Shown here one piece after another: positions 32,123-53,070 of a stretch of DNA of 64,000 nt; position 1 is the stretch's first letter, and each line of letters starts with the position of its first letter. This DNA is from an uncultured delta proteobacterium (lineage in GTDB: Bacteria > Desulfobacterota > Binatia > DP-6), in NCBI GenBank assembly GCA_963815115.1, contig CAWFFN010000012.1:736001-800000 (forward strand), written 5' to 3'. The position numbers and the translations under genes are program-made. Under the pieces are notes generated by a model that made no database searches, was not told the DNA's origin, and saw only the letters and a program-made list of their open reading frames with translations.

Positions 32123-33007
32123 TCACGCCGACAGGAGCGCGGAGGCGAGCTCCCGCCACTGTGGCAACGGAAGCGCCCGAGGATCGGCGGGCAGCACCTG
32201 CACGCAGACATGGTCTGCGCCGGCAGCGAGATGCGCGCGCACCCGGGCCAGGAGCGCGTCGGCGTCGCCCCACGCCACGATGGCGTCGACCAGGCGGTCG
32301 CTGCCGCCGTCGCGCAGGTCGTCGTCGCCGAAGCCGAGGGAGCGCAGGTTGCGCACGTAGTTGGGCAGGCCGAGATACATCGCCATGTGCCCCCGGGCGA
32401 TGGTGCGTGCCTTTGCCGGGTCGGTCTCGAGGACGAGAGCCTGCTCGGGCGCCAGGAGCGGCCCGCGCCCCATGATCTCGCGGGCGCGCGCGGTGTGCTC
32501 CGGAGGCACGAAGTAGGGATGCGCCCCGGCGGTGCGCTGGCCGGCCAGCGCGAGCATCTTCGGCGCGAGCGCGCCGATCACGCGGCGAGGAGGCTCGCTC
32601 GGCGGCGCCGCCAGGAACGGCGCCGCATCCATGGCATCGAGGTAGCGGCGCATGAACGAGAGAGGCTTGTCGTAGCGGTGCCCGCGGAGCCCCTCGACGA
32701 GGGGAGCGTGGCTGACGCCGATGCCGAGGAGGAAGCGCCCGGGGTACGCCTCGTCGAGCGTCTTCTCCGCCGCGGCCATGGTCATGGCGTCACGTCCCCA
32801 GACGTTGGCGATGCCGGTGGCCACGGTCAGGCGACGCGTGGCGGCGAGCAGCAGCCCGGCGTGCGTGAACGCCTCGCGCCCCATGGCCTCGGGGATCCAG
32901 AGTGCGGGATAGCCGAGCGACTCGATCTCGGCGGCCGCCTCCTGCGCCTTCGCGGCGGGCTGCAGCTCGAGTGCGAACGTCCAGATGCCGACACGTCCGA
33001 TGTCCAT
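32123..33007 (-). CDS. LLM-class F420-dependent oxidoreductase (MSMEG_4141-like)
   Basis: MDIGRVGIW, ALWIPE, VATGIANVW, GRFLLGIGVSH, AGAHPY, AGADHVCVQV. Confidence 0.9.
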   Translation of the reverse strand: MDIGRVGIWTFALELQPAAKAQEAAAEIESLGYPALWIPEAMGREAFTHAGLLLAATRRLTVATGIANVWGRDAMTMAAAEKTLDEAYPGRFLLGIGVSHAPLVEGLRGHRYDKPLSFMRRYLDAMDAAPFLAAPPSEPPRRVIGALAPKMLALAGQRTAGAHPYFVPPEHTARAREIMGRGPLLAPEQALVLETDPAKARTIARGHMAMYLGLPNYVRNLRSLGFGDDDLRDGGSDRLVDAIVAWGDADALLARVRAHLAAGADHVCVQVLPADPRALPLPQWRELASALLSA

Positions 33008-33107
33008 CGCGTCCGTGTGGCACGGGCACGGTCCGATGCCAAGGGGCGGACCCGCGTTGCCGTCGCGACCGCACGGCGCTAGAGGGGCCGCGGGAGGGCC
33101 CCGACCC

Positions 33108-33665
33108 ATGAGTCGACGTGCCGCCGCGATCGCCGCCGTCCTGTTCCTCACGCCCCTCGGAGCCGCCGCCGTCGAGGTCGCCGGCGTGTCGTTCCCGCCC
33201 ACGGTGCAGGCCGGTGGCAAGACCCTCACCCTCAACGGTGCCGGGCTGCGGACGCGGTTCTTCTTCAAGGTGTATGCGATGGGCCTCTATCTGGAGCATC
33301 CCAGCAGCGACGCCAGGGCGATCCTCGCTGCAGACGGGGTGCGCCGGGCCGAGCTCCACATGCTGCGCTCGGTGTCAGGCGCCGAGATGGGCGACGCCAT
33401 CGCGACGGCCGTCAACGCCAACGCCGGCAGCGCGGCCGGCCGGCTGAAGGATCGCGTCGACCGCCTGAAGGCCATGTTCACGAGCGCCAACCAGGGCGAG
33501 GTCATCACCCTCACCTACCTCCCCGGCACCGGCACGGTGGTCGCCGCGAAGGGCAGCGACGTCGGCACCATCGAGGGCAAGGACTTCGCAGATGCGCTCT
33601 TCGGCGCGTGGATCGGCACGGCGCCGGTGGACGACTCGCTCAAGCAGGCGCTCCTCGCGGGCTAG
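33108..33665 (+). CDS. Chalcone isomerase-like family secreted protein
   Basis: Signal peptide; LTLNGAGLRTRFFFKVYAMGLYL, FADALFGAWIG..PVDDSLKQALL. Confidence 0.9.
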   Translation: MSRRAAAIAAVLFLTPLGAAAVEVAGVSFPPTVQAGGKTLTLNGAGLRTRFFFKVYAMGLYLEHPSSDARAILAADGVRRAELHMLRSVSGAEMGDAIATAVNANAGSAAGRLKDRVDRLKAMFTSANQGEVITLTYLPGTGTVVAAKGSDVGTIEGKDFADALFGAWIGTAPVDDSLKQALLAG

Positions 33666-33788
33666 AGCGATCCGAGGTTCCGTCTCGGGTCGCTCAGCTG
33701 CGCATTCCGTCGCCAGGGAGTGCCGCGATCGCGAGCATCCCTGTCCGATCGGGCGAAGACCCACCGCGTCCGCACGTGGGCGGGACGC

Positions 33789-33804
33789 TGGCACCGCGGT
33801 TGCT
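33789..33804 (+). promoter_or_regulatory. Sigma-54 (-24/-12) promoter of the patatin gene
   Basis: TGGCAC-CGCGG-TTGCT, an exact match to TGGCAC-N5-TTGCW, ending 21 nt before ATG 33826. Confidence 0.7.
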
Positions 33805-33825
33805 GGAACGCGAGGCGATCCGTTC

Positions 33826-35097
33826 ATGCTCGGACTGGTGCTGACGGCCGGGGGCGCGCGCGGCGCCTATCAAGCCGGTGTGCTGAAGCGCATCGGCGAG
33901 ATCCCCGGGCTGCGCGAGGCGCCGTCGCCGTTCTCCATCGTCACCGGGGCGTCCGCGGGGGCCATCAACGTCGCCGCCGTCGCCGCCGGCAGCGCGAGCT
34001 TTCACGACGCCACCCAGCAGCTCGCCGCCATGTGGTGCCAGCTCCAGGTGGAGCAGGTGTTCCGGACCGACGCGCTCTCGCTCGGGCTGGGGGCGTTCGG
34101 CATGCTGCGCGACCTGGCGCTGGGTGGTCTCTTCGGCCGCACCGTCACCCAGGCGCTCTTCGACACCGCACCGCTGCGGGAGCTGCTCGCCCGCGCGCTG
34201 CCGCTCGACGGCATCGCCGAGGCGATCCGGCTCGGCCACCTCTATGCCATCGCCGTGTCGGCCACGAGCTACCACTCGGGTCGCTCGTTCACCTTCGTCC
34301 AGGGCCGACCCGGGCATCCCGTGTGGCGGAAGTCCAGGCGCGTCGTCCTGCCGGTCGAGCTGACCCTCGACCACGTGTGCGCATCGGCGGCCATCCCGAT
34401 CGTGTTCCCGCCCGTGCGCGTGCGCTCGCCGGCGGGCGACCTGTACTTCGGCGACGGCGCGCTCCGCCTGTTCACGCCCTTCAGCCCCGCCATCCGTCTC
34501 GGCGCCAGCCGCGTGCTGGCCGTCGGCGTGCGCTCCCAGCGTGCCGCCGACACGCTGTCGCGCGAGGAGCTCGCGACCGCGGAGGAGACCGGCGCGGCCG
34601 GGTCGGTGCTGCCATCGCCGCCGCTGGCGCAGATCTGCGGCGTGTTCCTGAACGCCATCTTCCTGGACCACCTCGACGGCGACCTGGACCATTTGCGGCG
34701 CATGAACGAGCTCATCCTCGCCTACGGCGGGGACCTCGAGGCGCGCAAGGAACGCGCCGCGGCCGCGCGCGTCAGCGAGCCGATGCGGCTGGTGACCCCG
34801 CTCGTGGTCAGCCCGTCGGAGGACCTGGCGATGGTCGCGCAGCGCTTCGCGCACCGCATGCCGCGTCTCGTGCGCTACCTGATGGACGGACTCGGCACCC
34901 CGGACGCGCAGAGCGCCGACCTGATGAGCTACCTGCTGTTCGACGCCGCCTACACGCGAGCGCTCGTCGACATCGGCCACCGCGATGCCAGCGAGCGCAT
35001 CGGCGAGATCGAGGCCTTTCTCCGCGTGTCACGGTCGTCGCGCAGCAAGGGAAGGGTACGCGCGGGCCGCCCGGACCGGGAACGCGCCGCCGGCTGA
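33826..35097 (+). CDS. Patatin-like phospholipase
   Basis: LVLTAGGARGAYQAG oxyanion motif, GASAG nucleophile, ASAAIPIVFPP, DGA catalytic Asp. Confidence 0.93.
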   Translation: MLGLVLTAGGARGAYQAGVLKRIGEIPGLREAPSPFSIVTGASAGAINVAAVAAGSASFHDATQQLAAMWCQLQVEQVFRTDALSLGLGAFGMLRDLALGGLFGRTVTQALFDTAPLRELLARALPLDGIAEAIRLGHLYAIAVSATSYHSGRSFTFVQGRPGHPVWRKSRRVVLPVELTLDHVCASAAIPIVFPPVRVRSPAGDLYFGDGALRLFTPFSPAIRLGASRVLAVGVRSQRAADTLSREELATAEETGAAGSVLPSPPLAQICGVFLNAIFLDHLDGDLDHLRRMNELILAYGGDLEARKERAAAARVSEPMRLVTPLVVSPSEDLAMVAQRFAHRMPRLVRYLMDGLGTPDAQSADLMSYLLFDAAYTRALVDIGHRDASERIGEIEAFLRVSRSSRSKGRVRAGRPDRERAAG

Positions 35098-35287
35098 GCA
35101 GCGCCCGCGACGCTCTCGCGCGCCCTTGATTCGCCCGCGTCGGCTCGCGCCCGCCGGCCGAGATGTTCGCCGGGCCGAACGTGCTCGAGGTGCACGAGGT
35201 GATGACCAGTACCGACCTGGACCTCGCGTGACGCGTTAGAAGAAAAGTGGCTTGACACGAATCGCCGACCGGCGCCAACGGGTCGGC

Positions 35288-36334
35288 ATGACGACGCTCC
35301 ATCGAGGTCTCACGCTGTTCATCCTCGGAGCGCTCGTGCTGGGCGCCGGTAGTCCGGTAGCGGCCAAACCCACTCCCACCCAGAAGTGCACCGCCGCCAA
35401 GGTGAAAGCGGCCGCGAAGAAGCTGTCGGCGAAGCTCGCGTGCTACGCCAAGGCAGCGACGAAGAACGCTCCAGTCGACGACGAATGCCTGGGCAAGGCC
35501 GAAACCAGCTTCAGGACGGCCTTCTCGAAGGCCGAATCGAAGGGCGGCTGCATCACCAGCGGCGACGCGACCGCGGTCGAGGCCGGGATCGAAGCCTTCG
35601 TCCAATCGTTGGCGACTGCCCTTCCCGACGGCGGTACGAAGGACGGGGGGAAGTGCGCGTCCGGGAAGCGCAAGGCGGCGGGAAAGAAGGCGATGGCCAA
35701 GCTCCTGTGCTACGCAAAATCCGCCACCAAGAACGTGCCGGTGGATGCCGGCTGCCTCGGCAAGGCGGAGGCCAACCTCGAGAAGGCCTTCAGCAAGGCG
35801 GAGAAGAAGGGCGGGTGCACGACGAGCGGAGACGCGGCGACGGTCGAGGACGCGGTCGACGCCATCGTCGCGCAGGTGGTGGCGCAGCTCACCACCCCGC
35901 CGACGACGACCACGACCGCCACGACCACCACGGCGGGGGGGCCGACCACCACGGCAACGGGGCCGACCACCACCGCGACCGGAGCGAGCACCACCTCGAC
36001 GACGATGGCGCCGGCCGTTCACGTCGTCATGGTCGGACCCAACGACATGCTGGTCTTCGACCCGGCGTCGCTTCCCATCCACGTGGGCGAGACCGTGCGC
36101 TGGGTGTGGGCCACGAGCTTTCACAGCGTGGTGAGTGGCACGGTGTCCACGGACGGGACCCGGATGCCGGACGGCCTGTTCTGCTCGCCGAACAACACCG
36201 CGTGCGACACGCTCCAGACCTCCAACGCGGGTGACACGTACGAGCGCACGTTCAACACCACGGGCACGTTCCCGTACTACTGTGCTCCGCACGGCAACAT
36301 GGGCATGGTCGGGACGATCGTGGTGCAACCCTAG
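35288..36334 (+). CDS. Secreted protein: two Cys-paired helical repeats, Thr-rich linker, cupredoxin (type 1 copper) domain
   Basis: Signal peptide; repeat KC..K.KAA.K...KL.CYAK.A.KN.PVD..CLGKAE...AFSKAE.KGGC twice; FHSVV...YYCAPHGNMGMVGTIVV supplies His/Cys/His/Met ligands. Confidence 0.88.
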   Translation: MTTLHRGLTLFILGALVLGAGSPVAAKPTPTQKCTAAKVKAAAKKLSAKLACYAKAATKNAPVDDECLGKAETSFRTAFSKAESKGGCITSGDATAVEAGIEAFVQSLATALPDGGTKDGGKCASGKRKAAGKKAMAKLLCYAKSATKNVPVDAGCLGKAEANLEKAFSKAEKKGGCTTSGDAATVEDAVDAIVAQVVAQLTTPPTTTTTATTTTAGGPTTTATGPTTTATGASTTSTTMAPAVHVVMVGPNDMLVFDPASLPIHVGETVRWVWATSFHSVVSGTVSTDGTRMPDGLFCSPNNTACDTLQTSNAGDTYERTFNTTGTFPYYCAPHGNMGMVGTIVVQP

Positions 36335-37038
36335 GCAGACGAGGGCTGCGTGGTGCGGTCGGGCGCGCCCCGTCGCCCCGCCGCCCGCGGGGAGCGCAGC
36401 AGCAGGCGGTCGAGCACGGCGATCGTGAGCAGCGAGAGCAGCGCGGAGAACGCGACGTCGCTCACGAAGTGGGCTCCCGACAGCACCCGCACGGCGCTGA
36501 CCGCGACCCCCGCGGCCAGCGCCGCGCCCACCGCGAAGGCCGATCCCGCAGCGACGCCGAGGGCGGTGAGCGCGAAGGCCGCGGCCGCGTCGCCGCTGGG
36601 AAAGGCGCAGTTCCGCCGGCATTGCGCCGCCGGAATTCCCGCGCGCGAGAACTGCGCGCCGCCGCCGAACTGACTGATCTCGCTCGGACGGGCACGGCCC
36701 CAGTGCTGCTTCAGTATCGAGTTGACGATGAGGCCGGGCCCGACGAGGAACGTGAGCAGGACCAGAAGGAGGCGGGGTGTGTCGAAGCCTCGCAGGATCG
36801 GGCGCCCGGCCATGCGGTTGGCCGCCAGGAGCACGATCGCGCCGACGACGGCCAGCCAGCAGCTGATCGAGACCAGCCAGCTCATCCGCAGCGCCAGCCC
36901 GTAGCGCGACAGCAGGAACTCGCCCGGACGGGAACGGTAGACCAGGCTCGAGATGGCGAGGTCGAGCCGCGGAAAGACGACGAAGAATGTGCCGATGACC
37001 GCCGCCGTCCCGATCGCCGCCCACAGGAGCCGCCGCAC
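36331..37038 (-). CDS. PAP2-family membrane phosphatase (LpxF-like)
   Basis: KQHWGRARP (C1), FPSGD (C2 variant), RVLSGAHFVSDV (C3). Confidence 0.85.
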   Translation of the reverse strand: MRRLLWAAIGTAAVIGTFFVVFPRLDLAISSLVYRSRPGEFLLSRYGLALRMSWLVSISCWLAVVGAIVLLAANRMAGRPILRGFDTPRLLLVLLTFLVGPGLIVNSILKQHWGRARPSEISQFGGGAQFSRAGIPAAQCRRNCAFPSGDAAAAFALTALGVAAGSAFAVGAALAAGVAVSAVRVLSGAHFVSDVAFSALLSLLTIAVLDRLLLRSPRAAGRRGAPDRTTQPSSA

Positions 37039-39099: not shown

Positions 39100-39354
39100 C
39101 GCGGCGGAGCGCTGGGCAGGCGAGCTCGACAGCGCAGGCGATCCGCAACCTGGCGGGGATCGAGCGCCGCATCCTCGTGTACGGCGGGAGCGACTCGTGG
39201 CGAACCGACGACGGCGTCGAGGTGATGTCCGACGCCCGGTTCAAGGGCGAGCTGGCGAAGGGGCTCTGAACCCGGACGCACCGTCGCCCAACTCCCGCTC
39301 ACCCGACGCATGATCCGCACACCGGGCCGATTCGCGGAAGGCGCTGAAAACGCG

Positions 39355-39780
39355 TCATCGGCCGTTCGCCGGCGTCACGGATGATGGTGGTCCTGAAGTT
39401 CCCTCCACTCCGAGCGCCTCGTTCAGCGGCCCGATCGCGAACAGCCAGAGCAGGTAGTAGACCACCGGCAGGAACACCGGCAGCACGATGGCGGCGGGAA
39501 ACCACGCGCCTTCCGCCAGGAAGAGCAGGTTGACGCCGACCGCCGCGAGGAAACCCAGGAGCGCGCCCCACGCGCCGATCCCGAGCCGCGGCTGCCGGCG
39601 CGCCCAGAGCAGATTCCACAGGCCCCACAGGATCGGTAGCAGGAAGAACGGCACCTGCCGGAGGGGCATCGCCGGGACCAGCGACGCCATCGACGTGCGC
39701 AGCGCGTACGGCCCGACGAGCACCGTTCCCGCCACGCCGGCGCCGATCAGGTAGGCGAGCAGGTCGCGGCGGCGAACCAT
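39355..39780 (-). CDS. Small 4-TM membrane protein in the ECF operon
   Basis: Four hydrophobic segments (PILWGLWNLLW; YYLLWLFAIGPLNEALG); starts 3 nt after the anti-sigma stop. Confidence 0.75.
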   Translation of the reverse strand: MVRRRDLLAYLIGAGVAGTVLVGPYALRTSMASLVPAMPLRQVPFFLLPILWGLWNLLWARRQPRLGIGAWGALLGFLAAVGVNLLFLAEGAWFPAAIVLPVFLPVVYYLLWLFAIGPLNEALGVEGTSGPPSSVTPANGR

Positions 39781-39783
39781 GCG

Positions 39784-39996
39784 TCAGAGGAGGCCGCCGG
39801 CCGTGAGCACGCGAAGCGGGTCGGGCACCACGGCGAGGGTAGCGATCGCGACGGCGAGCGCCGCCATCTCGCCCCAGCCCATCGCCGGCAGGCGCAGCGG
39901 GACGCGCTCGTCGCGTCCCAGCCGGGCCCGGACTCGCGGCCAGAGGTCGCGGTCGGGTGCGGGCGTGCCGGAGCGGATCAGGTCGAGCGTTTGCAT
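39784..39996 (-). CDS. Putative minimal membrane anti-sigma factor (70 aa)
   Basis: Directly downstream of the ECF sigma gene; P.RDLWPRVRARL anti-sigma helix-4-like motif followed by one TM. Confidence 0.65.
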   Translation of the reverse strand: MQTLDLIRSGTPAPDRDLWPRVRARLGRDERVPLRLPAMGWGEMAALAVAIATLAVVPDPLRVLTAGGLL

Positions 39997-40003
39997 TCGT
40001 GGA

Positions 40004-40552
40004 TCACTCCTCTGGCTCCAGGTCTGCGAGCATGACACGGAGCCGGCGCAGGCCGTGGAACAGGCGGGACTTGACGGTGCCGAGCGGCGCACGCGTCACG
40101 CGCGCGATCTCCTCCAGCGACAGCTCGCCGAGCAGGCGCAGCGAGCATGCCTCGCGCTGCGCCACCGGCAGCGCGGCGAACGCCGCCGCAACCCGCTGCT
40201 GGATGTCGTCCCGGACCTCCGCGGGCGGGGTGCCGATCTCCGGCGCGTCCGACAGCGGCAGCCAACCCCACAGGCGTCTGGCGCGCAGGCGATTGCGGGC
40301 CAAGTTGCGTGCGATGGCGAAGATCCAGGGACGCAGGGGCGCGCCCTCGCGCCAGCGCTCCCGGTGTCGGTGCAAGCGCAGGAACGTCTCCACCACCAGA
40401 TCCTCTGCGGTCGCCGGGTCGTCCAGGATGCGCGCCAGATGGCGGCCCAGCGGTGCCTGGTAGCGGCGGAAGATGATCTCGAGAGCCGTGGGATCCCCCG
40501 CTCGGAAGGCCGCAAAGAGCGCCTCGTCGCTCGGCTGCGGCGCAGCTGACAT
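40004..40552 (-). CDS. ECF RNA polymerase sigma factor
   Basis: SDEAL..GD..A, AEDLVVETFLRL, PWIFAIARNLARNRLR, LSLEEIA..PLGTVKSRLFHG. Confidence 0.95.
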   Translation of the reverse strand: MSAAPQPSDEALFAAFRAGDPTALEIIFRRYQAPLGRHLARILDDPATAEDLVVETFLRLHRHRERWREGAPLRPWIFAIARNLARNRLRARRLWGWLPLSDAPEIGTPPAEVRDDIQQRVAAAFAALPVAQREACSLRLLGELSLEEIARVTRAPLGTVKSRLFHGLRRLRVMLADLEPEE

Positions 40553-40566
40553 CCGTCATGCCTGCT

Positions 40567-40634
40567 GTACCCCGGAAGCGGGCAGGAAGTTCAATGGCTC
40601 CGGCCATTGAACCCGGGACGCGCCTTGCGGGTAC
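40567..40634. promoter_or_regulatory. Back-to-back ECF-type promoters TGAAC[CT]-N16-GGTAC on both strands
   Basis: Minus: TGAACT (40593-40588), N16, GGTAC (40571-40567). Plus: TGAACC (40608-40613), N16, GGTAC (40630-40634). Centred on the inverted repeat GTTCAATGGC-TCCG-GCCATTGAAC (40589-40612). Confidence 0.72.
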
Positions 40635-40666
40635 CTGGAGACGAGTGCAAGGAGAGGAGGCCGGTG

Positions 40667-40855
40667 ATGATCCCCTTCGACTACGGGTTCGGTGCCTTCC
40701 AGGCGCCCGTCGCGCGGGCGCTCGCCTGGCTCGCCACCCTCGGTGCCGGCGCGACGATCGCCGTCGTGGCGCTCGTGGCCGTCGAGCTGCGGCGAGCGAC
40801 TCGCCGCAGCTCGACCGTTCGTTCCGTGCCGCCGACGCTCCGCGAGGCGGCCTGA
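40667..40855 (+). CDS. Small single-TM membrane protein (62 aa)
   Basis: Strong GGAGAGGAGG RBS; MIPFDYGFGAFQAPVARALAWLATLGAGATIAVVALVAVELRR; ends 2 nt before the next start. Confidence 0.7.
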   Translation: MIPFDYGFGAFQAPVARALAWLATLGAGATIAVVALVAVELRRATRRSSTVRSVPPTLREAA

Positions 40856-40857
40856 TC

Positions 40858-43470
40858 GTGCTGCGCCGCTTCGTCGCCTACCGCGTGCTCCGCATCGCCG
40901 CCGTCGCGGTGCCGGCGATCGTGCGCTACCGCTGGCTCGATCTGCGCGAGCGACTCGGGCGGCCTGCACCGCCCGAGGCCTGGGAGCGGGTGCACGACCA
41001 CGTCGCGCTCGGACTGCACGACCTGGGCGTCCATCTTGCCGGGCTCTTCGTGAAGCTCTGCCAGGTGGTGGGCGCCCGCGCGGACAACTTTCCCGCTCCC
41101 TTCATCCGCCGGCTCGGGCGGTTCCACGACGCCGTCCCGCCGCGTTCCTTCTCCGAGATGCGGCGGCAGATCGAGCGCGAGCTGGGTCGGCCCCTCGAGG
41201 AGGTCTTCCTCGACGTCGACGAGGCGCCGCTGGCGGCCGCCTCGCTGGCCCAGGTGCACCGCGCCACGCTGCTGGACGGCACCCCGGTCGCGATCAAGGT
41301 GCAGTACCCGGAGATCGCGCACCTCGCGCGTGTCGATCTGGCCAGCCTGCGCCTGGTCGGCCGCGCCGCCGGAAGCCTGCTGCGCGTCTTCGACCTGCGC
41401 AGCATCATCGACGAGATCGCCGAGTTCGTCGCGCTCGAGCTCGACTTCGCCCGCGAGGGCGACACGACGGAGCGCATCCGCGCGGCCCTGGCGGACGACC
41501 CGACGGTGCGCGTGCCGCGCGTCCACCGCCGCTACACCACGGGCAAGCTCCTGGTCCTCGAGTATCTCGACGGCATCAAGGTGACCGACCTCGACCGGCT
41601 CCGGGCGGCGGGCCACGACCTGGCCGAGGTCGCGCGCCGCATCGGGCGCCTCTATGCGCGCATGATCTTCGAGCAGGGCTTCTTTCAGGGCGACCCGCAC
41701 CCCGGGAACCTCCTCGTGCTCCCGGGCACCGTCATCGGGCTGCTCGACTTCGGCCTGGCCAAGGAGCTGCCCCCCGGCTTCGGCACCGCGGTCGGCGAGC
41801 TCGTCACCCGCGGCCTCGCGGGTGACGCCGGCGGAGCGCTCGCCGCCGCACGGCGCGCCGGCTTCGTCGTGCCCGACGATCAGGCGACGGCGCTGCCGGG
41901 GCTCGTGCTGGTGCTCCTCGGCGACCGTGACGAGCAGGCCAACGCGGCGGCGCTCATCGCCCAGACGCCGGTCACGCGAGTGCCGAGCCATTTCGGCCTC
42001 ATCGCTCGCGTCATCCTGCTGCTGAACGGCCTCTCGCACCGCCTCGCCCCCGGCCAGCTCCTGGTGCAGCGCGCCCTGGTCGAGGCGATCGCCGAGCAGT
42101 CGCCCGGGCCGGGCGCGCAGCCCGCAGCCGGCGACGGACTCCCGCCCGGTCCCGACGGACCACCCCTGCTCCAGGTCCTGCGCTGGCTGCAGTGGCCCCT
42201 GCCGCTGCTCGACGAATGCGCCCGCCGCTTCGGCGACACCTTCACGCTCCGCCTCCCCGGCAGCTCACCCGTCGTCTTCTTCTCCCACCCCGACGCCATC
42301 CGCGCCATCTTCACCGGCGACGAGGAGGATCTGCGCGCCGGCGAGGCCAACGCCACCCGTCTCGAGTCGATCCTCGGGAAGCATTCGCTCCTCCTGCTCG
42401 ACGGTCAGGAGCATCTGCGCGAACGCCGGATGCTACAGCCGCCCTTCCACGGCGATCGCATGGAGGCCTACGGGACGGTGATGCGCGACATCGCTGCCCG
42501 CGCCGTCGACGCCTGGCCCGCCCGGCGTCCATTCCCGATCCATCCGGAGATGCAGGGCGTCACCCTCGACGTCATCCTGCGCACCGTCTTCGGGCTCGAC
42601 GAGGGTCCCGCCAAGCGCGAGCTGCGGGGGGCGCTGATCGAGCTCCTCGGCATGGGCGCGAATCCGCAGCTCCTGCTTGCCGCTGCGCAATCGAACGGGA
42701 ACCCGGCGGGAGCGGCGGCCCGGCTCCTGGCAGTTCGCACGCGCGTCGACGAATTGCTCTTCGGCGAGATCGCGACGCGCCGGCGGGCCGACGTCGCCGG
42801 CCGCAGCGACGTCCTCTCGCTCCTCGTCCAGGCGCGCGACGAGGACGGCCGCCTCCTCGACGATCAGGCCCTGCGCGACGAGCTGGTGACGATTCTCCTC
42901 GCGGGTCACGAGACCACGGCGACGGCGCTGGCGTGGGCCGTGAGCCATGTCCTCGCGCACCCCGACGTGCGCCGGCGGTTGCACGACGAGCTGCGCGGCG
43001 CCGGTCCCGCTCCGCTCGATCCGCAGCGCGTCACCCGCCTCGAGTACCTCGACGCGGTGTGCCGCGAGACCCTCCGCCTGACGCCCATCCTGCCGATCGT
43101 GGGCCGCCGGCTGACCCGGCCGATGCGCCTGGGAGGCGTCGACCTGCCTGCCGGGGCGGTGGCGGCTCCGTGCATCTATCTGGCCCACCGCCGCGTCGAG
43201 CGCTGGCCGGAGCCCGAGCGCTTCCGGCCCGAGCGCTTCCTCGAGAGCAAGCCCACGCCGTACGAGTTCTTCCCCTTCGGCGGCGGCGTGCGCCGCTGCC
43301 TCGGCATGGCGTTCGCGCTCGCCGAGATGAAGATCGTCCTCGCCGAGGTGCTCACCCGGGTCGAGCTCACGGCAGCGCCCGGCTACCAGGTCCGGGTGGT
43401 TCGCCGCAGCGTCACCCTGGCGCCGTCGGAGGGCATGCCGGTCGTGGTCGAGCGTCGGGCGGCTGCCTGA
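40858..43470 (+). CDS. UbiB/AarF/ABC1 atypical kinase fused to cytochrome P450 (870 aa)
   Basis: ABC1: VKLCQ (KxGQ-like), AAASLAQVHRA, VAIKVQYP, FQGDPHPGN, LLDFG. P450: LPPGP, AGHETTA, ETLR, PERF, FGGGVRRCLGMAFA. One uninterrupted frame. Confidence 0.9.
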   Translation: MLRRFVAYRVLRIAAVAVPAIVRYRWLDLRERLGRPAPPEAWERVHDHVALGLHDLGVHLAGLFVKLCQVVGARADNFPAPFIRRLGRFHDAVPPRSFSEMRRQIERELGRPLEEVFLDVDEAPLAAASLAQVHRATLLDGTPVAIKVQYPEIAHLARVDLASLRLVGRAAGSLLRVFDLRSIIDEIAEFVALELDFAREGDTTERIRAALADDPTVRVPRVHRRYTTGKLLVLEYLDGIKVTDLDRLRAAGHDLAEVARRIGRLYARMIFEQGFFQGDPHPGNLLVLPGTVIGLLDFGLAKELPPGFGTAVGELVTRGLAGDAGGALAAARRAGFVVPDDQATALPGLVLVLLGDRDEQANAAALIAQTPVTRVPSHFGLIARVILLLNGLSHRLAPGQLLVQRALVEAIAEQSPGPGAQPAAGDGLPPGPDGPPLLQVLRWLQWPLPLLDECARRFGDTFTLRLPGSSPVVFFSHPDAIRAIFTGDEEDLRAGEANATRLESILGKHSLLLLDGQEHLRERRMLQPPFHGDRMEAYGTVMRDIAARAVDAWPARRPFPIHPEMQGVTLDVILRTVFGLDEGPAKRELRGALIELLGMGANPQLLLAAAQSNGNPAGAAARLLAVRTRVDELLFGEIATRRRADVAGRSDVLSLLVQARDEDGRLLDDQALRDELVTILLAGHETTATALAWAVSHVLAHPDVRRRLHDELRGAGPAPLDPQRVTRLEYLDAVCRETLRLTPILPIVGRRLTRPMRLGGVDLPAGAVAAPCIYLAHRRVERWPEPERFRPERFLESKPTPYEFFPFGGGVRRCLGMAFALAEMKIVLAEVLTRVELTAAPGYQVRVVRRSVTLAPSEGMPVVVERRAAA

Positions 43471-43573
43471 GCGCGGGCTGCCCTGGTCGGCTGATCGAGG
43501 CGCCCCGGGAGGCCCGGATGGGTCACCAAAATAGATGTTGTAAGTGCAGTCCAACCCGGAGTAGTACGGCCCG

Positions 43574-43587
43574 ACTGACATGTCAGT
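43574..43587. promoter_or_regulatory. 14-bp perfect palindrome, candidate transcription factor operator
   Basis: ACTGACATGTCAGT in an AT-richer intergenic region, with an extra TGTCAG half-site just downstream. Confidence 0.45.
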
Positions 43588-43671
43588 ATTGGATGTCAGG
43601 CGAGCGCGGTGCGGACCGCGTGAGAGCCGAAACCCATGCCCAGACCCGGAGCGCCCGCTCCGGGCATCGCC

Positions 43672-43709
43672 GACGGATGCCTAGCCAACAGACGGATGCC
43701 TAGCCAACA
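43672..43709 (+). repeat. Perfect 19-bp tandem duplication immediately before the RBS
   Basis: GACGGATGCCTAGCCAACA twice, followed by AAGGAGG and ATG 43726. Confidence 0.9.
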
Positions 43710-43725
43710 AAGGAGGGGGTTCAAC

Positions 43726-45903
43726 ATGAGACTGTCTGCTTTCGCGAGCGTCTTGGTCCTCGCCGCACTCGTCAGAGGTGCCGCTGCACAGGTCGTCCCG
43801 CCACCATTGACCGCCACCGTGGTCAACTTCGACGACATGGTGGCCAGTGATACCTGCATGCCCAACGGGCCCATCACCAACGAGTACGCGGGGCTCGGTC
43901 TGATCTTCAGCGGCTTCGGGCTGAGTGGCGGCGCCCTCATCAACGGAAATTGCAACTACGGCAACAACGGCATGGCGGTGTCGCCGCCGAACCTCATGGG
44001 CTTCGCCACCATCATCAACTACCCGAACGGCGGCGCCGAGATATCTCCCGAGACCCTCACCTTCTACCCGCCGATCACCTACCTGCAGTTGGACACCTTC
44101 ACTTTCTCCGACATCTGCGAAGGGACCAACATGTTCTTCGCCAACGCATTCGCGGAGGACGGCACACCGGTCGGCAATATCTCTTTCGTGAACGGCGACC
44201 CCAGGACGGTACAATTCACGTTCTCGCCGACGCCCGCGCAGAAGGTGGTCATCACCAGCAACAAGACATGCGGAAATTCGTTCCTCAAGGGCGTCGAGAC
44301 GTTCACCCTCGACAACATCGCCTGGATTTCCGTGCCGGCCGCCGCGAGCAAGTGCGCGCAGGGCGAGATCGACGCCGCCGGCAAGAAGGCCAAGGCCATC
44401 GCGACCTGCTACTCCAAGGCGCTCCAGAAGGGCCTCGAGGTCGATCAGAGCTGCATCCAGAAGGCCGTCAACACCTTCAACAGCAGCGTCGCCAAGTCGC
44501 AGGACAAGGGCGATTGCCTGGTCGGTGGCCGCCATGGTGACAACCAGGACGTGAGCCAGCTCGAGGCCGCCGTCGACAACCTGATCGCGAGCAGCCTCCA
44601 GATGGTGACCGGCGGGCAGCCGGGACCCAGCATCTGCTTCGGCAAGAAGCTCGCCTCGATCGGCAAGAAGGCGCAGTCCTTCACGAGCTGCTGGTCCAAG
44701 GCGGCAAAGAGCGGGACGAACCCGGACGAGGCATGCGCCCAGAAGGCCGCGAGCTCGTTCAACGGGTCGCTCAAGACGTGCGGCACTCCGACCCAGCTCG
44801 CCCCGCTCGAGTTCCTGATCGACCAGTTCGGGAATGCCGTCTCCCGGAGCATCCAGGTGCCGACGACCACGACGACCACGACGACCACGAGCACCACCAC
44901 CACCACCCAGCCGCCGCCGCTGGGCGACCACCTGAGCTTCACGACCACGCCGGGCACCGCCAACTGCACGATCGCGCCGACGGATGACCCGATGACGTCG
45001 TTGCCGGCCCCGCCGTTCTCGGGCGAGCTCGACTCCGACACGGCCGGCACCACCAAGATCGCCGATCTCGGCCTGGGCTGCCTCTACATCGGCGGCGGGA
45101 TCGCCACCGTCGCGCCGTCGCAGATTCCGGAGAATGCGACCTCGATCTTCAACACCACCGATGGGATCAACCTGACGGCGAGCCTCGGCACGAGCCGGGA
45201 GGATTGCACGACGGGACCGCAGCCGACCCTGCACTGCGTCAACAATGGCGCCGTCGAGTGCACGAGCGACGCCGACTGCGCCAACACGCCCGGCGGCTGC
45301 GCGCCCGATGCCACCTGCTTCTTCGGTCCCCCGATCCCGGTCAACGGCTTCCCGCCGACCTGCGTCATCAACGTCTTCGCGGCCGACGGGAGCGGGACGC
45401 TGGACATCCCCACCGGCCAGTCGAGCGTCAGCATCAACCTCGGCTCGCGCGTCTACCTCGCGCCGTTGTTCAGCGGCATGACCTGCCCGTCGTGCAGCGG
45501 TGGCTTCTGCGACAGTGGACAGAACGCCGGACAGCCGTGCTCGACGGCGAACAGCGCCAACACCAGTCTCGAGTGCCCGCCGTTCGACTCGCAGTTCATC
45601 TCCACCCTGCCCGTCGACCTGACCCCGCTCAGCAGCGGGACGACCACGGTCACCGCAGCCGATGGCATCTTCTGCTCTGGGCAGATCAATGCGGGCGCAT
45701 TCGGTCAGGCGGCGACGCAGGCAATCACCCAGGTGGGCTCGCCATCCGGAGATCTGTCGGACGGCCTGCCCCATGCCGGCGTCCTGGTCAGCGACTTCTG
45801 CATCCCGGCGACGGGCAACGTCGCCCTCGACGGGATCGCCGACCTGCCCGGTCCGGGCTCGCTCAGCCTGCCGGGGAACGCGACGTTCGTCACCGTACCG
45901 TAG
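43726..45903 (+). CDS. Large secreted Cys-rich protein (beta N-domain, Cys-paired helical repeats, poly-Thr linker, Cys-rich C-domain)
   Basis: AGGAGG RBS and signal peptide; KCAQGEIDAAGKKAKAIATCYSKA..VDQSCIQKA repeats; PTTTTTTTTTSTTTTTQ linker; C-terminal FCIPATGN..DLPGPGSLSLPG. Confidence 0.85.
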   Translation: MRLSAFASVLVLAALVRGAAAQVVPPPLTATVVNFDDMVASDTCMPNGPITNEYAGLGLIFSGFGLSGGALINGNCNYGNNGMAVSPPNLMGFATIINYPNGGAEISPETLTFYPPITYLQLDTFTFSDICEGTNMFFANAFAEDGTPVGNISFVNGDPRTVQFTFSPTPAQKVVITSNKTCGNSFLKGVETFTLDNIAWISVPAAASKCAQGEIDAAGKKAKAIATCYSKALQKGLEVDQSCIQKAVNTFNSSVAKSQDKGDCLVGGRHGDNQDVSQLEAAVDNLIASSLQMVTGGQPGPSICFGKKLASIGKKAQSFTSCWSKAAKSGTNPDEACAQKAASSFNGSLKTCGTPTQLAPLEFLIDQFGNAVSRSIQVPTTTTTTTTTSTTTTTQPPPLGDHLSFTTTPGTANCTIAPTDDPMTSLPAPPFSGELDSDTAGTTKIADLGLGCLYIGGGIATVAPSQIPENATSIFNTTDGINLTASLGTSREDCTTGPQPTLHCVNNGAVECTSDADCANTPGGCAPDATCFFGPPIPVNGFPPTCVINVFAADGSGTLDIPTGQSSVSINLGSRVYLAPLFSGMTCPSCSGGFCDSGQNAGQPCSTANSANTSLECPPFDSQFISTLPVDLTPLSSGTTTVTAADGIFCSGQINAGAFGQAATQAITQVGSPSGDLSDGLPHAGVLVSDFCIPATGNVALDGIADLPGPGSLSLPGNATFVTVP

Positions 45904-48886: not shown

Positions 48887-51800
48887 ATGCTTTTTTCCCG
48901 AACGGTGTCCGTTGCGCTCGTCTGCGCCTTCCTCGCGCTGGCCTCTGGTCCCGCCCAGGCCGCGATCTCGTTCGTGCAGGGACTCGGCACCGCTCAGGCG
49001 AACAGTGGCTCGACGCTCTCGATCGAGCTCGGCGCAGCCATCACGGTCCCGGTCGGCGATACGATCATCGTGAGCTTCGCGATGAACCCGCGGGGTGAGC
49101 GTCGGCGACGTGCAGTGCTCGGACTCGGGCGCGAACGTGTGGCACGTCGATGGGGACGTGACGCGCGGCTCGGCAATCGACGGCGTGCGCGCGGTGACGT
49201 GCTCGACCCGCGTCACCACCGCGCTCGCGAACGGGCGACTCGATCACCGTGAGCCATCCTGCGAACGCGGACGAGCGCGCCATGACGGCGACCGAGTTCT
49301 CGGGGCTGCGCGCGAACGCGGTCGACCGCGTGGCCACCGGCCTGGGCGTCGATGACCCCAGCCCGCTGACCGCCATCACGGCCGTCACGACGATCGCCAA
49401 CGAGCTCCTGGTGGGTACGATCGGCGTCGAGGGAACACCCCAAGCCCCCGATACCTTCACGGTGGGTGCGGGCTACCTTCCGCTCGCGCGCGCGGGAACG
49501 CTGGGTGGCGGCGCGGCGGGCAACATCTCGGTCAACGGCGAGTACCGGATCGTGAGCGCCACGGGCCAGTACGTCGCCAACGCGACGCTCGGCGTGGCGC
49601 GAGACTGGGCCGCGATCATCACGACCTACGAATCCGCATGCGGGAACGGCGTGGTCGACCCCGGCGAGCAGTGCGACGACGGCAACGCGGTCGCCGGCGA
49701 CTGCTGCTCGGCTGCGTGCACCTTCGAGCCCGCCATCACGGTCTGCCGGGCCTCGGCGGGCTTCTGCGACGTCGCCGAGACCTGCACCGGCTCGAGCGGC
49801 ACGTGTCCGGCCGATGCGAAGAGCACCGCCGTATGCCGGGCGTCGGGCGGCGACTGCGACGGCGCCGAGTCCTGCGACGGCGTGCACGACGACTGTCCAC
49901 CCGACACCCTGCCGGCGATGGCCGGAACCGTGTGCCGCCCGAGCGCCGGGGCCTGCGACATCGAGGACACCTGCGACGGCGTGCACCCGACCTGTCCGCC
50001 CGACGCCAAGAGCACGGCCGTCTGCCGCGGGGCGGCGGGGCCCTGCGACGTGGCCGAGTCCTGCGACGGCGTCAACAACGCGTGTCCGCCCGACGTCCTG
50101 GCGAGCGCGCAAACCCCCTGCCGCGCCGCCGCCACCTTCTGCGATCAAGTCGAGAACTGCACCGGCTCGAACGCGCTATGTCCGCCGGACGCCAAGAAGG
50201 CCGCGACGATCGTGTGCCGCCAGGCCGCGGGCATCTGCGACGTGGCCGAGTTCTGCGACGGCATCACCGATGATTGCCCGGCGAACGGCTTCAAGGGAGC
50301 GGGGGACGGAGTGCCGCGGCTGCCGGCGGAGTCTGCGACCTTGCAGAGAGCGTGCACCGGCTCGAGCGCCGCCTGTCCCGCCGACGTGAAGAGCACCTCT
50401 CCGTGCCGCCCGGCGGCTGGCGCGTGCGACGCCGCCGAGTCGTGCGACGGCGTCCATGACACCTGCCCGGCCGACGAGTCTCGCCCTCGTGGGTACGACC
50501 TGTCGAGACGCTGCTGGCGATTGTGACGTCGCCGAGACCTGCACCGGGATCGAGCCGAGCCTGTCCGCCCGACGCCTTCGCACCTGCCACGGTCACGTGT
50601 CGGCCTGCGGCCACATTTTGTGACGCCCCCGAGTCCTGCACGGGGTCGAACGCGGCCTGTCCTCCCGACGCGAAGAAGCCGCCGAGTGTCGTCTGCCGGG
50701 GGGCCGTGGGCACGTGCGACGTGGCCGAGTTCTGCGACGGCGCCAACAATGCCTGCCCGCCGAACGTCTTCGTCACGGGCGGGACGGAATGTCGGGCCTC
50801 CGCGGGCGATTGCGATCCCGCCGAGACCTGCACGGGCTCGAGCGGGGCGTGCCCCGCCGACGCCAAGAGCACGGCGGTCTGCCGGCCCGCGGTGGGCGCG
50901 TGTGATTCCGCCGAATCGTGCGACGGCGTCAGCAACGGCTGCCCGCCCGACGTGATGGCGCCCGCCGGCGCCGACTGCCGTGCGTCCGCCGGCACGTGCG
51001 ACGTCGTCGAGAAGTGCGACGGCAACGGCACGGCCTGCCCCCAGGACAAGTTCGTGACGGCAGGGATCGTCTGCCGCCCGGTCGCCGGCACCTGCGACGT
51101 CGCGGAGACGTGCACGGGCAGCAGCCCGCTGTGTCCGGCGAACGGATTCGTCGCGCCCGGCGTCGAGTGCCGTGCCTCGGCGCGGCGTGTGCGACCCGGC
51201 CGAGCAGTGTACCGGCTCGGCAGCCGCGTGTCCGCCCGATGCGAAGAGCACGGCGACGTGCCGCCCGACCGCGGGCGACTGCGATCTTCCCGAATCATGC
51301 AATGGCTCGAGCAACGACTGCCCGACCGATGCGAAGAAGACCGGTGTGTGCCGCCAGGCTGCCGGCACGTGCGACGCCGTGGAGTCCTGCAACGGCACGA
51401 GCAACGACTGCCCCCAGGATCTCTTCCTGCCGGGCGGCACGACCTGCCGTGCCGTCGCTGCCGGTTCGGCGGGCGCGTGTGACATCGCCGAGCAATGCAC
51501 CGGGTCGAGTCCCATCTGCCCGACCGACGACATCAAGGACGCTGGCGTGCCGTGCCGGGCAGCCGCCGGCCAGTGCGACGTGGCCGAGGCGTGCGACGGG
51601 GTGCACCCGGCCTGCCCGGCCGATGCCAAGAGCACCGCACAGTGCCGCGCCTCGGCGGGTGACTGCGATCCCGCGGAGTCGTGCGACGGCACGCACAACC
51701 ACTGCCCCGCCGACGCGAAGAGCGCCGCCGTCTGCCGGCCCGCCGTCGGAGCGTGCGACGTCGCCGAGTCGTGCAACAACAGGGACAACGACTGTCCCGC

Positions 51801-53070
51801 CGACAAGATCGCGACCGCCGGGACCACCTGCCGCGCCGTCGCCGGCGACTGCGACGTCGCCGAGACCTGTGACGGCGCGAGCTTCGCGTGCCCGGTGGAC
51901 AAGTTCGTCCTCGGAGGCACCCCGTGCCGCGCCGCGGGCGGGACCTGTGACATCGCCGAGCAATGCACGGGCTCGAGCGCGGCCTGCCCGGTCGACGTGA
52001 AGAGCACGGCGATCTGTCGTCCTTCCACGGGTCCCTGCGACGCCGCGGAGTCCTGCGATGGCGTGGGCAACGGCTGTCCGCCGGATGTCCTGGCGGTGAA
52101 CGGCACGCCGTGCCGTCCGGCCGCGGGCGTCTGCGACGCCGTCGAGACGTGCGACGGGACCAGCGTCACGTGTCCTGCCGACCAGAAGCGGACGGGCGAC
52201 TGCCGGCCGCCGGCGGGGCCGTGCGACGTTGCCGAGCGCTGCGATGGCATCAGCGACACCTGCCCCGCCGACCGCGTCGTGGCCGCGGGCTCCACCTGTC
52301 GCGCGGTGGCCGGCGCATGCGACGTCGTCGAGACGTGTGACGGCACCAACGTCACGTGTCCCGCCGACAGCTTCGTCTCGGCTGGAACCACGTGTCGGCC
52401 GGCGGCCAGCTCGTGCGACGTCGTCGAGACCTGCACCGGTACGAGTGCCACCTGTCCGCCCGACACCAATGGTCCCGACGCCGATCGCGACGGGGTCTGC
52501 GATCCTCAGGACGATTGCCCCGGCACCGCCGACCCCGCCCAGGGCGACGCCGACGGAGATGGCATCGGTGACGCCTGCGACCCGTGCACCAGGTCCGACG
52601 CGGGCGCCATGACGGCCCGCGCGCTCAGGGTGAAGGGGCTCAGGAGCGGTAAGGGAGAGCAGACCCTGACGTTCCATGGCACGATGACGGTGCCGACGAA
52701 CCCCGAGATCGACCCGGTGGCGAGGGGGGTCCGCGTCCTCATCACGACGGCGGCCGGCGATGTGGTGGTGGACGTGACCATTCCGGGTGGTGGCGGTTGG
52801 AAGACCAACCGCGCCCGGACGACGTGGAGCTACCACGGTGGCGCGGGAGGCCGCATCAGGGAAGTCACGATGCGCCGGAGCCGCTCTGCACCGGGCACGA
52901 TCCGCTTCAGCGTGAGCGGAAAGGGGGCGAACCTCGCGCCGCCCGACGGCACGCCGATCACGGCGACGATCGTGCTGGACGCGCCGTTCGCCACGACGGG
53001 CCAGTGCGGCGAGGCCGACTTCGGATCGTGCAAGAAGTCGAAGTCGGGGAAGGCGCTCGTCTGTAGCTGA
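48887..53070 (+). CDS. Giant secreted protein with about 29 disintegrin-like Cys repeats, TSP3 repeats and a C-terminal beta domain; multiple frameshifts (probable sequence errors)
   Basis: Signal peptide MLFSRTVSVALVCAFLALASGPAQA; CGNGVVDPGEQCDDGN (Myxococcus Cys-rich/DUF4215-like); repeats CRxxAGxCDxAExCxGxxxxCPxD; DADRDGVCD..DADGDGIGDACD. Frame changes near 49091, 49234, 50300-50352, 50479, 50549 and 51183. Confidence 0.8.

Follow-up and report, generated by a model that had tools for sequence, protein, structure and literature searches.

An ABC1–cytochrome P450 fusion protein encoded beside an ECF sigma factor module in an uncultured soil bacterium

Here, we report a gene of an uncultured delta proteobacterium (Desulfobacterota; Binatia; DP-6) that encodes, in a single polypeptide of 870 amino acids, an ABC1/UbiB-type atypical kinase-like ATPase domain followed by a cytochrome P450. 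The gene lies in a 64,000-nucleotide (nt) stretch of contig CAWFFN010000012.1 (assembly GCA_963815115.1), which we call the window and to which the coordinates of the features below refer. The fusion is a genuine, conserved two-domain protein of a soil bacterium. Structure prediction places the C-terminal helices of its ABC1 domain on the face of the P450 through which substrates enter, and the gene adjoins a conserved module that includes an extracytoplasmic function (ECF) sigma factor. We propose, as a tentative reading that falls a little short of probable, that the fusion is an enzyme induced by stress, whose ABC1 ATPase domain, gated by nucleotide, takes up a lipophilic compound from the membrane and delivers it to the docked P450, where it is oxidized. 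The genetic, structural and comparative evidence that bears on this proposal, and on the alternatives to it, is set out below.

Architecture and authenticity of the fusion gene

Translation of 40858–43470 on the plus strand gives 870 residues and a stop codon, with no internal stops. In this one frame Pfam recognizes both an ABC1 domain (PF03109, E = 3.4e-69, 233.1 bits against a cut-off of 22.9, profile positions 2–236 of 244) and a P450 domain (PF00067, E = 2.5e-67, 228.1 bits against a cut-off of 22.8, profile positions 1–446 of 462). An earlier note on this DNA had described a single open reading frame (ORF) of 870 codons with a complete ABC1 domain and a complete P450; translation, Pfam and a check of motifs bear out that description, and every motif that the note had named is found where it had been placed. 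A database protein (P0003), also of 870 amino acids, is 100% identical to the fusion. The gene is laid out as follows.

40858–43470, plus strand: ABC1–P450 fusion gene, 870 amino acids, GTG start (translation, Pfam and motifs)
40858–42093, plus strand: ABC1/UbiB-type atypical kinase-like ATPase domain, residues 1–412, with N-terminal KxCQ helices and a C-terminal helical extension (Pfam and motifs)
42094–42138, plus strand: linker EQSPGPGAQPAAGDG, residues 413–427, variable in sequence in the alignment, with a predicted local distance difference test score (pLDDT) below 50 at residues 418–422
42139–43467, plus strand: cytochrome P450 domain, residues 428–870, from LPPGP to the C terminus, with the heme-ligand Cys814 encoded at nt 43297 (Pfam)

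Both Pfam domains occur together in 91 of 120 listed protein clusters, and 76 of these match no less than 97% of its length, at 61–90% identity with the query; the clusters derive from JGI, ENA, NCBI and Logan assemblies. The full-length fused gene is present in 10 of 41 relatives' genomes and in 15 of the 401 sampled genomes of the class, where it is confined to 3 of 20 families. Two names occur among the relatives, 'Candidatus Binatia bacterium' and 'Thermodesulfobacteriota bacterium', and we take the host of the present copy, whose genome measures 6.9 Mb at roughly 71% GC, to be Binatota-like. The note's view that the fusion is not an indel artefact is upheld by these counts of clusters and class genomes. 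Its further observation, that the linker has neither a start nor a stop codon in any plus-strand frame, also stands: all three plus-strand frames are free of stop codons across 42060–42170, and the sole start-type codon in that interval, GTG 42064, lies outside the linker.

An error in sequencing or assembly could have merged two neighbouring genes, or the present copy could be a decaying, non-functional one. A genome of the same genus lends this reading some weight, as its copy of the fusion gene (G002; locus L098, C5:7856–10436) is broken into 4–5 frame-shifted pieces, through either decay or sequencing error. Read support for the exact window is also thin, consisting of short, low-depth soil-metagenome contigs from four runs, with no single read-derived contig spanning the full-length gene. 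Against an artefact stand the uninterrupted architecture of the 76 near-full-length clusters, which come from four independent assembly sources, and of the 15 genomes; the G+C content at third codon positions (GC3), which is 0.94 in the ABC1 and 0.91 in the P450 domain; the junction, which is free of stops in every frame; the catalytic motifs, all of which are intact; and a 334-nt soil-metagenome contig from a different study, which spans the linker without a gap. The artefact reading is already close to refuted, and we give it next to no weight.

The open frame of the fusion reaches upstream to ATG 40558, which would yield a protein of 970 amino acids. This start was rejected on three grounds: the extension has a GC3 of 0.59, far from the values of the two domains given above; it is occupied, in another frame, by a 62-residue ORF (40667–40855, GC3 0.90); and GTG 40858, or its equivalent, is where the homologues and the database entry start. 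We therefore assign the start to GTG 40858 rather than ATG 40558, as codon usage and homologues indicate. The earlier note covered neither the choice of start nor the regulatory context; both the question of ATG 40558 and the ECF module described below are added here.

ABC1 domain

The ABC1 domain contains the sequences VKLCQ at residue 65 (K66-L-C68-Q69), AAASLAQVH at 126–134, VAIK at 144 (K147), DPHPGN at 279–284 and DFG at 297–299. The elements K66-x-C68-Q69, A126–H134, K147, D279–N284 and D297–G299 do not vary among the 54 fused proteins that were aligned. The fusion departs from the classical KxGQ signature in that Cys68 replaces the Gly, with the Lys and Gln retained. The note had suggested that this change may alter substrate gating; the idea that it is special to the fusion is not sustained by the comparison with relatives. 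Among the matches listed, standalone relatives carry Cys at the Gly site in 8 of 12 cases, Gly in 3 and Ser in 1; the Cys-bearing ones come from Myxococcota, Desulfobacterales, Opitutales and others, and all 54 fused proteins have Cys as well. KxCQ is thus a trait of the subfamily rather than of the fusion.

Among solved structures, the domain matches 5yjz (Rv3197/MABP-1) and 7cy2 (MSMEG_1954) at E values of about 7e-33, with roughly 290 residues aligned, and COQ8A and COQ8B at 1e-20 to 2e-25. Its scores fall short of the cut-offs of the UbiB equivalog models TIGR01982 (225.1 against 487.55) and NF003404 (156.9 against 667) and of the MABP-1 model NF050082 (123.4 against 800). Two further ABC1 genes in the genome, with the motifs KMAQ and KLGQ, have UbiB scores of 231 and 285, also below the cut-off. 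The ABC1 domain of the fusion is thus a third paralogue, neither the housekeeping UbiB nor an orthologue of MABP-1.

Like MABP-1 (Rv3197, Mycobacterium tuberculosis) and MSMEG_1954 (Mycobacterium smegmatis), the fusion has a kinase-like core and an N-terminal accessory region of the KxGQ kind; unlike it, those proteins are standalone, at roughly 440–450 amino acids, carry KxGQ and have no fused enzyme, and their macrolide binding is a feature that we do not claim for the fusion. With UbiB and COQ8 (ADCK3) the fusion shares the Pfam family, the A-rich loop, the catalytic Lys, DPHPGN and DFG. It differs from them in its KxCQ motif and attached P450, as well as in having no strong transmembrane helix and no quinone-pathway context.

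P450 domain

The P450 domain begins with LPPGP at residue 428 and continues through AGHETT (682–687), ETLR (737–740), PERF (786–789) and FGGGVRRCLG (807–816). It therefore contains the heme-thiolate signature FxxGxRxCxG, the K-helix ExxR, the PERF motif and the I-helix oxygen-activation motif (A/G)Gx(D/E)T(T/S). C814, E737 and R740 are invariant across the 54 aligned fused proteins. The nearest structures found by Foldseek are CYP120A1 (2ve3, TMt 0.88) and CYP184A1 (7wzm, TMt 0.84), followed by BM3, CYP3A and CYP51; the nearest P450 structures are 21–30% identical to the domain. The best sequence match to a solved P450 is 7wzl (E = 3.6e-43), which is CYP184A1 according to the fold search. The nearest solved P450s are structures of CYP120A1 with retinoic acid and of CYP184A1 with oleic acid.

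Membership of a P450 family usually goes with an identity above 40%. Because the domain is only 24–30% identical to the solved members of this group, it falls outside the named CYP120, CYP184 and BM3 families; 'CYP family 110' is the JGI product name of many homologues, a label that comes from product names alone. With CYP110, CYP120A1, CYP184A1 and the BM3 heme domain the fused P450 shares a eukaryote-like fold group and an N-terminal PPGP hinge. It is probably an ordinary O2-activating monooxygenase of this CYP110/CYP120/CYP184/BM3-like group, whose members use long lipophilic substrates. In the accessible part of one report, CYP110 of Anabaena is described as membrane-associated and as a binder of long-chain fatty acids (PMC1079853).

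Pfam at E ≤ 0.01 finds only ABC1 and p450 in the fusion and no fused redox partner domain, which sets it apart from self-sufficient P450s and agrees with the note's description of a fusion partner other than a redox domain. Since no redox partner is fused, a ferredoxin or reductase would be needed in trans. BM3/CYP102 and CYP116B carry a fused redox partner, whereas the fusion instead has an N-terminal ABC1 domain; CYP5619 and the fungal DOX–CYP proteins have a dioxygenase or peroxidase partner, and ABC1 is neither. What the fusion has in common with known P450 fusions is a covalently attached second domain that would serve the same reaction sequence.

The genome holds roughly 20 P450 genes, including standalone paralogues that are 49–55% identical to the fused P450. 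In these paralogues LPPGP is preceded by a short tail and not by an N-terminal anchor. Outside the window, at C12:682183–683533 of the same genome, lies a further paralogue of the P450 domain, 60–69% identical and spread over two frames, which suggests a frameshifted copy. Elsewhere, relatives from the P450's family are fused to a second P450, an AMP-binding domain, a TMEM164-family domain or a carbamoyltransferase (P0125, P0179, P0237 and P0105), and the family of the fused P450 seems to fuse readily with partners that relate to lipids.

Predicted docking of the two domains

The full-length AlphaFold2 model has a mean pLDDT of 81.4 and a predicted template modelling score (pTM) of 0.78; at the linker its confidence is low. 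When the ABC1 and P450 domains were docked as two chains, the pair scored 0.61 and the best control 0.00. Of 80 solved complexes, 58 score at least as high, as do 2 of 110 mismatched pairs; these benchmark counts are only rough because the docking alignment was self-made from fused proteins. Contacts agree by at least 86% between docking runs, and the pLDDT of the partners is at least 83. In the docking model the interface comprises residues 317–324, 344–369 and 398–415 of the ABC1 domain and residues 434–449, 602–620 and 844–859 of the P450. From fold knowledge and the secondary structure of the model, we take the P450 segments to be the A′/A helices, the F–G loop and the C-terminal β strands, respectively. 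These elements form the face by which substrates enter a P450, and microsomal P450s dip the same face into the membrane. In the prediction, the C-terminal helices of ABC1 thus rest on the substrate-entry face of the P450, and the proximal face, where redox partners bind, is left free.

The firm predicted interface is also compatible with allostery. ABC1 may be a regulatory or chaperone domain that gates or stabilizes the P450 according to its ATP/ADP state or to membrane binding, or may serve to anchor it. The standalone P450 paralogues being anchor-less, ABC1 could provide membrane targeting to the fused one, and a section heading of one report has COQ8 contact the membrane through its KxGQ domain (10.1101/149823). 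However, an ATP site that is invariant in 54 sequences would be superfluous for a pure anchor, and such a role leaves unexplained why fusion occurred twice, independently and with unrelated P450 clans, and why the unfused pairs described in the next section exist. We consider a regulatory domain unlikely. The narrower idea that ABC1 replaces a P450's N-terminal membrane anchor was rejected, since the standalone paralogues have no such anchor.

Recurrent association of ABC1 with P450s

A second type of ABC1–P450 fusion occurs in Myxococcota. Its ABC1 domain is about 48% identical to that of the present fusion; its P450 is CYP107/PikC/EryF/CYP125-like and only 26% identical to the present P450 over 197 residues. 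Thirty-four ABC1 sequences were compared in a quick maximum-likelihood tree, in which one clade with an SH-aLRT (Shimodaira–Hasegawa-like approximate likelihood ratio test) support of 99 unites both fusion types, one P450-neighbouring ABC1 and ten standalone genes, with the two fusion types in separate subclades. Because the two P450s are unrelated (26% identity), the fusions appear to be independent, and the simplest reading is that one ABC1 subfamily was fused twice, to P450s of two clans.

ABC1 and P450 genes also stand side by side unfused. In a Myxococcota genome, a P450 gene diverges from an operon of TetR, ABC1, MAPEG, thioesterase and PhyH genes, with a gene for an AMP-binding enzyme adjoining. 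In a Dehalococcoidia genome, an ABC1 gene, followed by an MMPL transporter gene, lies head-to-head with a P450 gene, and a flavin monooxygenase is encoded nearby. These unfused neighbourhoods are lipid-themed. A profile scan of genome contigs yielded, among the matches listed, no close fused relatives and standalone ABC1 loci only; these loci, from many phyla, served as the background set considered below.

The ABC1 domains of the second-type fusions and the P450-neighbouring ABC1 match Pfam APH, a family of small-molecule phosphotransferases, weakly (E about 1e-5). This match, together with the invariance of the kinase-type set of the present fusion (K147, D279 and N284 of DPHPGN, and D297 of DFG), raises the possibility that the two domains are consecutive enzymes of a pathway or detoxification step, the P450 hydroxylating a compound that ABC1, as a small-molecule kinase, phosphorylates, or the reverse. 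Consecutive action is a common reason for gene fusion in general. The ligand pocket of MSMEG_1954, as given in the available text, includes the KxGQ Lys and Asp281 (PMC8696161), and since Asp281 aligns with the Asp of DPHPGN, the pocket would lie beside the ATP site. For COQ8 and MABP-1, however, ATPase activity alone is reported in the accessible parts of the respective papers, and the predicted contact of the C-terminal helices of ABC1 with the P450 entry face suits a hand-off at least equally well. Two consecutive enzymes therefore strike us as decidedly unlikely.

ECF sigma factor module

The fusion belongs to a conserved module of five genes: an ECF sigma factor gene with genes for membrane proteins of 70 and 141 amino acids and, divergent from these, a gene for a 62-residue membrane protein followed by the fusion. 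The components that accompany the fusion are as follows.

40004–40552, minus strand: ECF sigma factor, 182 amino acids (Pfam Sigma70_r2 and Sigma70_r4_2; TIGR02937, 70.1 bits against a cut-off of 42.9)
39784–39996, minus strand: 70-residue single-pass membrane protein, candidate anti-sigma factor, beginning 8 nt past the sigma stop codon (GC3 0.90)
39355–39780, minus strand: 141-residue multi-pass membrane protein, encoded at the end of the sigma operon, 4 nt past the 70-residue gene
40667–40855, plus strand: 62-residue ORF with one transmembrane helix and an Ala-Ala end, preceded by GGAGAGGAGG, its stop 2 nt before the GTG of the fusion (GC3 0.90)
40608–40634, plus strand: ECF-type promoter-like motif TGAACC-N13-GCGGGTAC, directed toward the 62-residue ORF and the fusion
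40567–40593, minus strand: promoter-like motif TGAACT-N13-CGGGGTAC, directed toward the sigma operon

The product of 40004–40552 has the make-up of an ECF (group 4) sigma factor: of the sigma-70 regions it contains just 2 and 4, and it matches the ECF superfamily model. Its gene lies divergent from the fusion in eight related loci, at 64–77% identity. The 70-residue protein is kept in eight related loci at 52–73% identity and carries the motif DLWPRLRARL; the 141-residue gene is present in seven of the eight fully flanked related loci (49–71% identity) and in 13 of 41 relatives' genomes, and its Atlas cluster is named 'hypothetical protein' and comes most often from Candidatus Binatota. The hydropathy of the 62-residue protein peaks at residues 18–42. 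Equivalents are found in six of nine fusion loci and in both of two sigma loci with other payloads, and all eight end in AA; Ala-Ala ends recall protease-recognition tails. The genes for the 70-, 141- and 62-residue proteins are each single-copy in the genome. Searches of Pfam (at E ≤ 10 for the 70-residue protein) and NCBIfam gave no match and no recognizable anti-sigma domain for the 70- and 141-residue proteins, and for the 62-residue protein only a sub-threshold touch of LapA_dom.

The motif TGAACC-N13-GCGGGTAC occurs with the same spacing in all nine intergenic regions, in one of them with GGGTGC. The motif toward the sigma operon keeps its exact spacing in seven of nine loci, and in the other two one-base variants were seen by eye. 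The two motifs face away from each other in the intergenic region and have their −35 and −10 elements in common. In the 6.9-Mb genome, the core TGAAC-N16-GGGTAC occurs five times, two of them at this intergenic region; of the other three sites, one lies inside an ORF, one about 120 nt upstream of a gene for a 936-residue protein without a family match, and one in an ORF-free stretch. The genome scan with this core thus revealed no clear further member of a regulon, and a scan of 39200–43800 for sigma-70-type promoters and terminators found none. We infer from the shared motif that the ECF sigma factor is autoregulated and that its main target is the operon of the 62-residue protein and the fusion.

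Some known ECF systems, such as CarQ–CarR and SigF–NrsF, have anti-sigma factors that are small or multi-pass membrane proteins. The present module resembles this type in having an ECF sigma gene followed by membrane-protein genes, a sigma promoter that appears to be autoregulated and a divergent target that shares the motif. It differs in that the 70- and 141-residue proteins have no family match and that the target operon begins with a tiny membrane protein with an Ala-Ala end.

Two relatives carry the same sigma, 70-residue and 141-residue module with other payloads (locus L114, G016:C477, 1754–3783; locus L113, G014:C132, 1658–3365). In these, the place of the fusion is taken by a fusion of a FAD_binding_3 monooxygenase with an alpha/beta hydrolase and by MarR plus an NnrU-family membrane protein, and both payloads sit behind an equivalent small, Ala-Ala-ended membrane protein.

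The constant company of the sigma module, in which no anti-sigma domain is recognizable, would also suit a sensor, in which the P450 heme detects a ligand, a gas or the redox state and the kinase-like ABC1 domain phosphorylates the ECF sigma or anti-sigma proteins. Some ECF sigma factors are indeed controlled by Ser/Thr kinases. On the other side, the P450 keeps its full monooxygenase set, including the I-helix acid–alcohol pair within AGHETT; the same sigma module occurs with very different payloads, so that the payload slot looks like an output; and no such sigma factor lies near the second-type fusions or the split pairs. A sensor is thus highly improbable.

Proposed mechanism

In the proposed hand-off of a membrane compound from ABC1 to the P450, release of the ECF sigma factor would lead to transcription of the fusion from the ECF-type promoter, and the dedicated ECF module would imply that the signal is a membrane or envelope stress. 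The ABC1 domain would be held at the membrane through its KxCQ helices. By analogy with MABP-1 and MSMEG_1954, a lipophilic membrane compound might enter the nucleotide-gated pocket of the domain, which would then pass it to the entry face of the P450, where the model docks the C-terminal helices. The P450 would oxidize the delivered compound, which may be a fatty acyl, isoprenoid or phenolic lipid or a lipophilic toxin.

An ATP-driven hand-off of a membrane lipid is consistent with the docking model, with the lipid-themed split pairs and with the P450 relatives that bind retinoic and oleic acid. It also has precedents within the ABC1 family. MABP-1 and MSMEG_1954 are described, in the available text of two papers, as ATPases with a macrolide pocket that is opened by nucleotide (PMC8696161; PMC6208485). 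The COQ8 ATPase is activated by cardiolipin-containing membranes and by phenols that resemble intermediates of coenzyme Q (CoQ), according to the accessible part of the report that also places its membrane contact in the KxGQ domain (10.1101/149823).

Several observations weigh against this proposal. The sigma module takes exchangeable payloads and hence does not specify the chemistry of the fusion, and otherwise the conserved module has no lipid-pathway gene. Among the matches listed, a P450 lies within 8 kb in only 3 of 80 standalone ABC1 loci, and the link between ABC1 and P450s seems to hold for only a part of the subfamily. The docking score is the model's own confidence, obtained with an alignment of fused proteins, and docking gives interface residues rather than the continuity of the ABC1 pocket with the P450 channel. 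Hydropathy reveals no strong transmembrane segment in the fusion, whose membrane association is thus inferred. Finally, the available text on MABP-1 gives an ATPase rate that is unchanged by erythromycin (PMC6208485), so that ligand-coupled use of ATP is not a given in the ABC1 family.

Other genes in the window

Upstream of the sigma operon, genes for a patatin-like phospholipase (33592–35097), a PAP2 phosphatase (36331–37038), a luciferase-like monooxygenase (32123–33268) and a cupredoxin-domain protein (35252–36334) would fit a lipid theme. A functional role of these genes with the fusion was considered and set aside as unsupported, as they are not conserved beside it. Just downstream of the fusion, 43636–45903 has a lowered GC content of 0.668 and a strongly negative GC skew, and holds a plus-strand ORF of 755 amino acids together with overlapping minus-strand ORFs at 44445–45056 and 45084–45437. 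The ORFs of this region gave no match in Pfam or NCBIfam, and relatives do not keep them next to the fusion. Farther downstream, two plus-strand ORFs at 49249–50526 and 51172–53070 contain five and eight matches, respectively, to Pfam Disintegrin (PF00200; E = 5.8e-40 and 7.5e-65), a domain best known from animal and snake-venom proteins.

Discussion

The literature that we searched, which largely excludes subscription journals, contains no description of an ABC1–P450 fusion, in keeping with what the earlier note had supposed. The architecture itself is present in databases, where JGI product names list both domains. In its available text, the main genomics paper on Binatota mentions P450s for cyp153 only (PMC8262859). 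The architecture is thus unstudied rather than unseen.

To our knowledge, the job of UbiB, COQ8/ADCK3 and plant ABC1K proteins is unsettled: their ATPase activity and its modulation by lipids and phenols are known, and no substrate transaction has been observed. Against this background, the architecture of the fusion argues that a UbiB-type domain may serve an oxygenase with a lipophilic substrate. A broader claim, which we regard as possible but doubtful, is that ABC1 is an ATP-driven device that lifts lipophilic membrane compounds into an oxygenase, in a partnership that arose at least twice by fusion and exists also between neighbouring genes. If the hand-off fails, what remains is an ordinary, uncharacterized bifunctional gene. 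The fusion adds a partner that is neither a redox domain nor a dioxygenase to the natural P450 fusions, and brings to light a previously unstudied ECF sigma module of an uncultured soil phylum.

If true, the broader claim would turn the fusion into a readily measured test system for UbiB-type function, as the spin shift of the heme could be followed with and without nucleotide; this optical readout of the P450 would be the first direct spectroscopic assay of how a UbiB-family domain handles its substrate. It would also bear on the question of why UbiB and COQ8 mutants stall at ring-hydroxylation steps. The module, for its part, would represent a new kind of ECF sigma system, in which tiny Ala-Ala-ended membrane proteins precede exchangeable oxygenase payloads.

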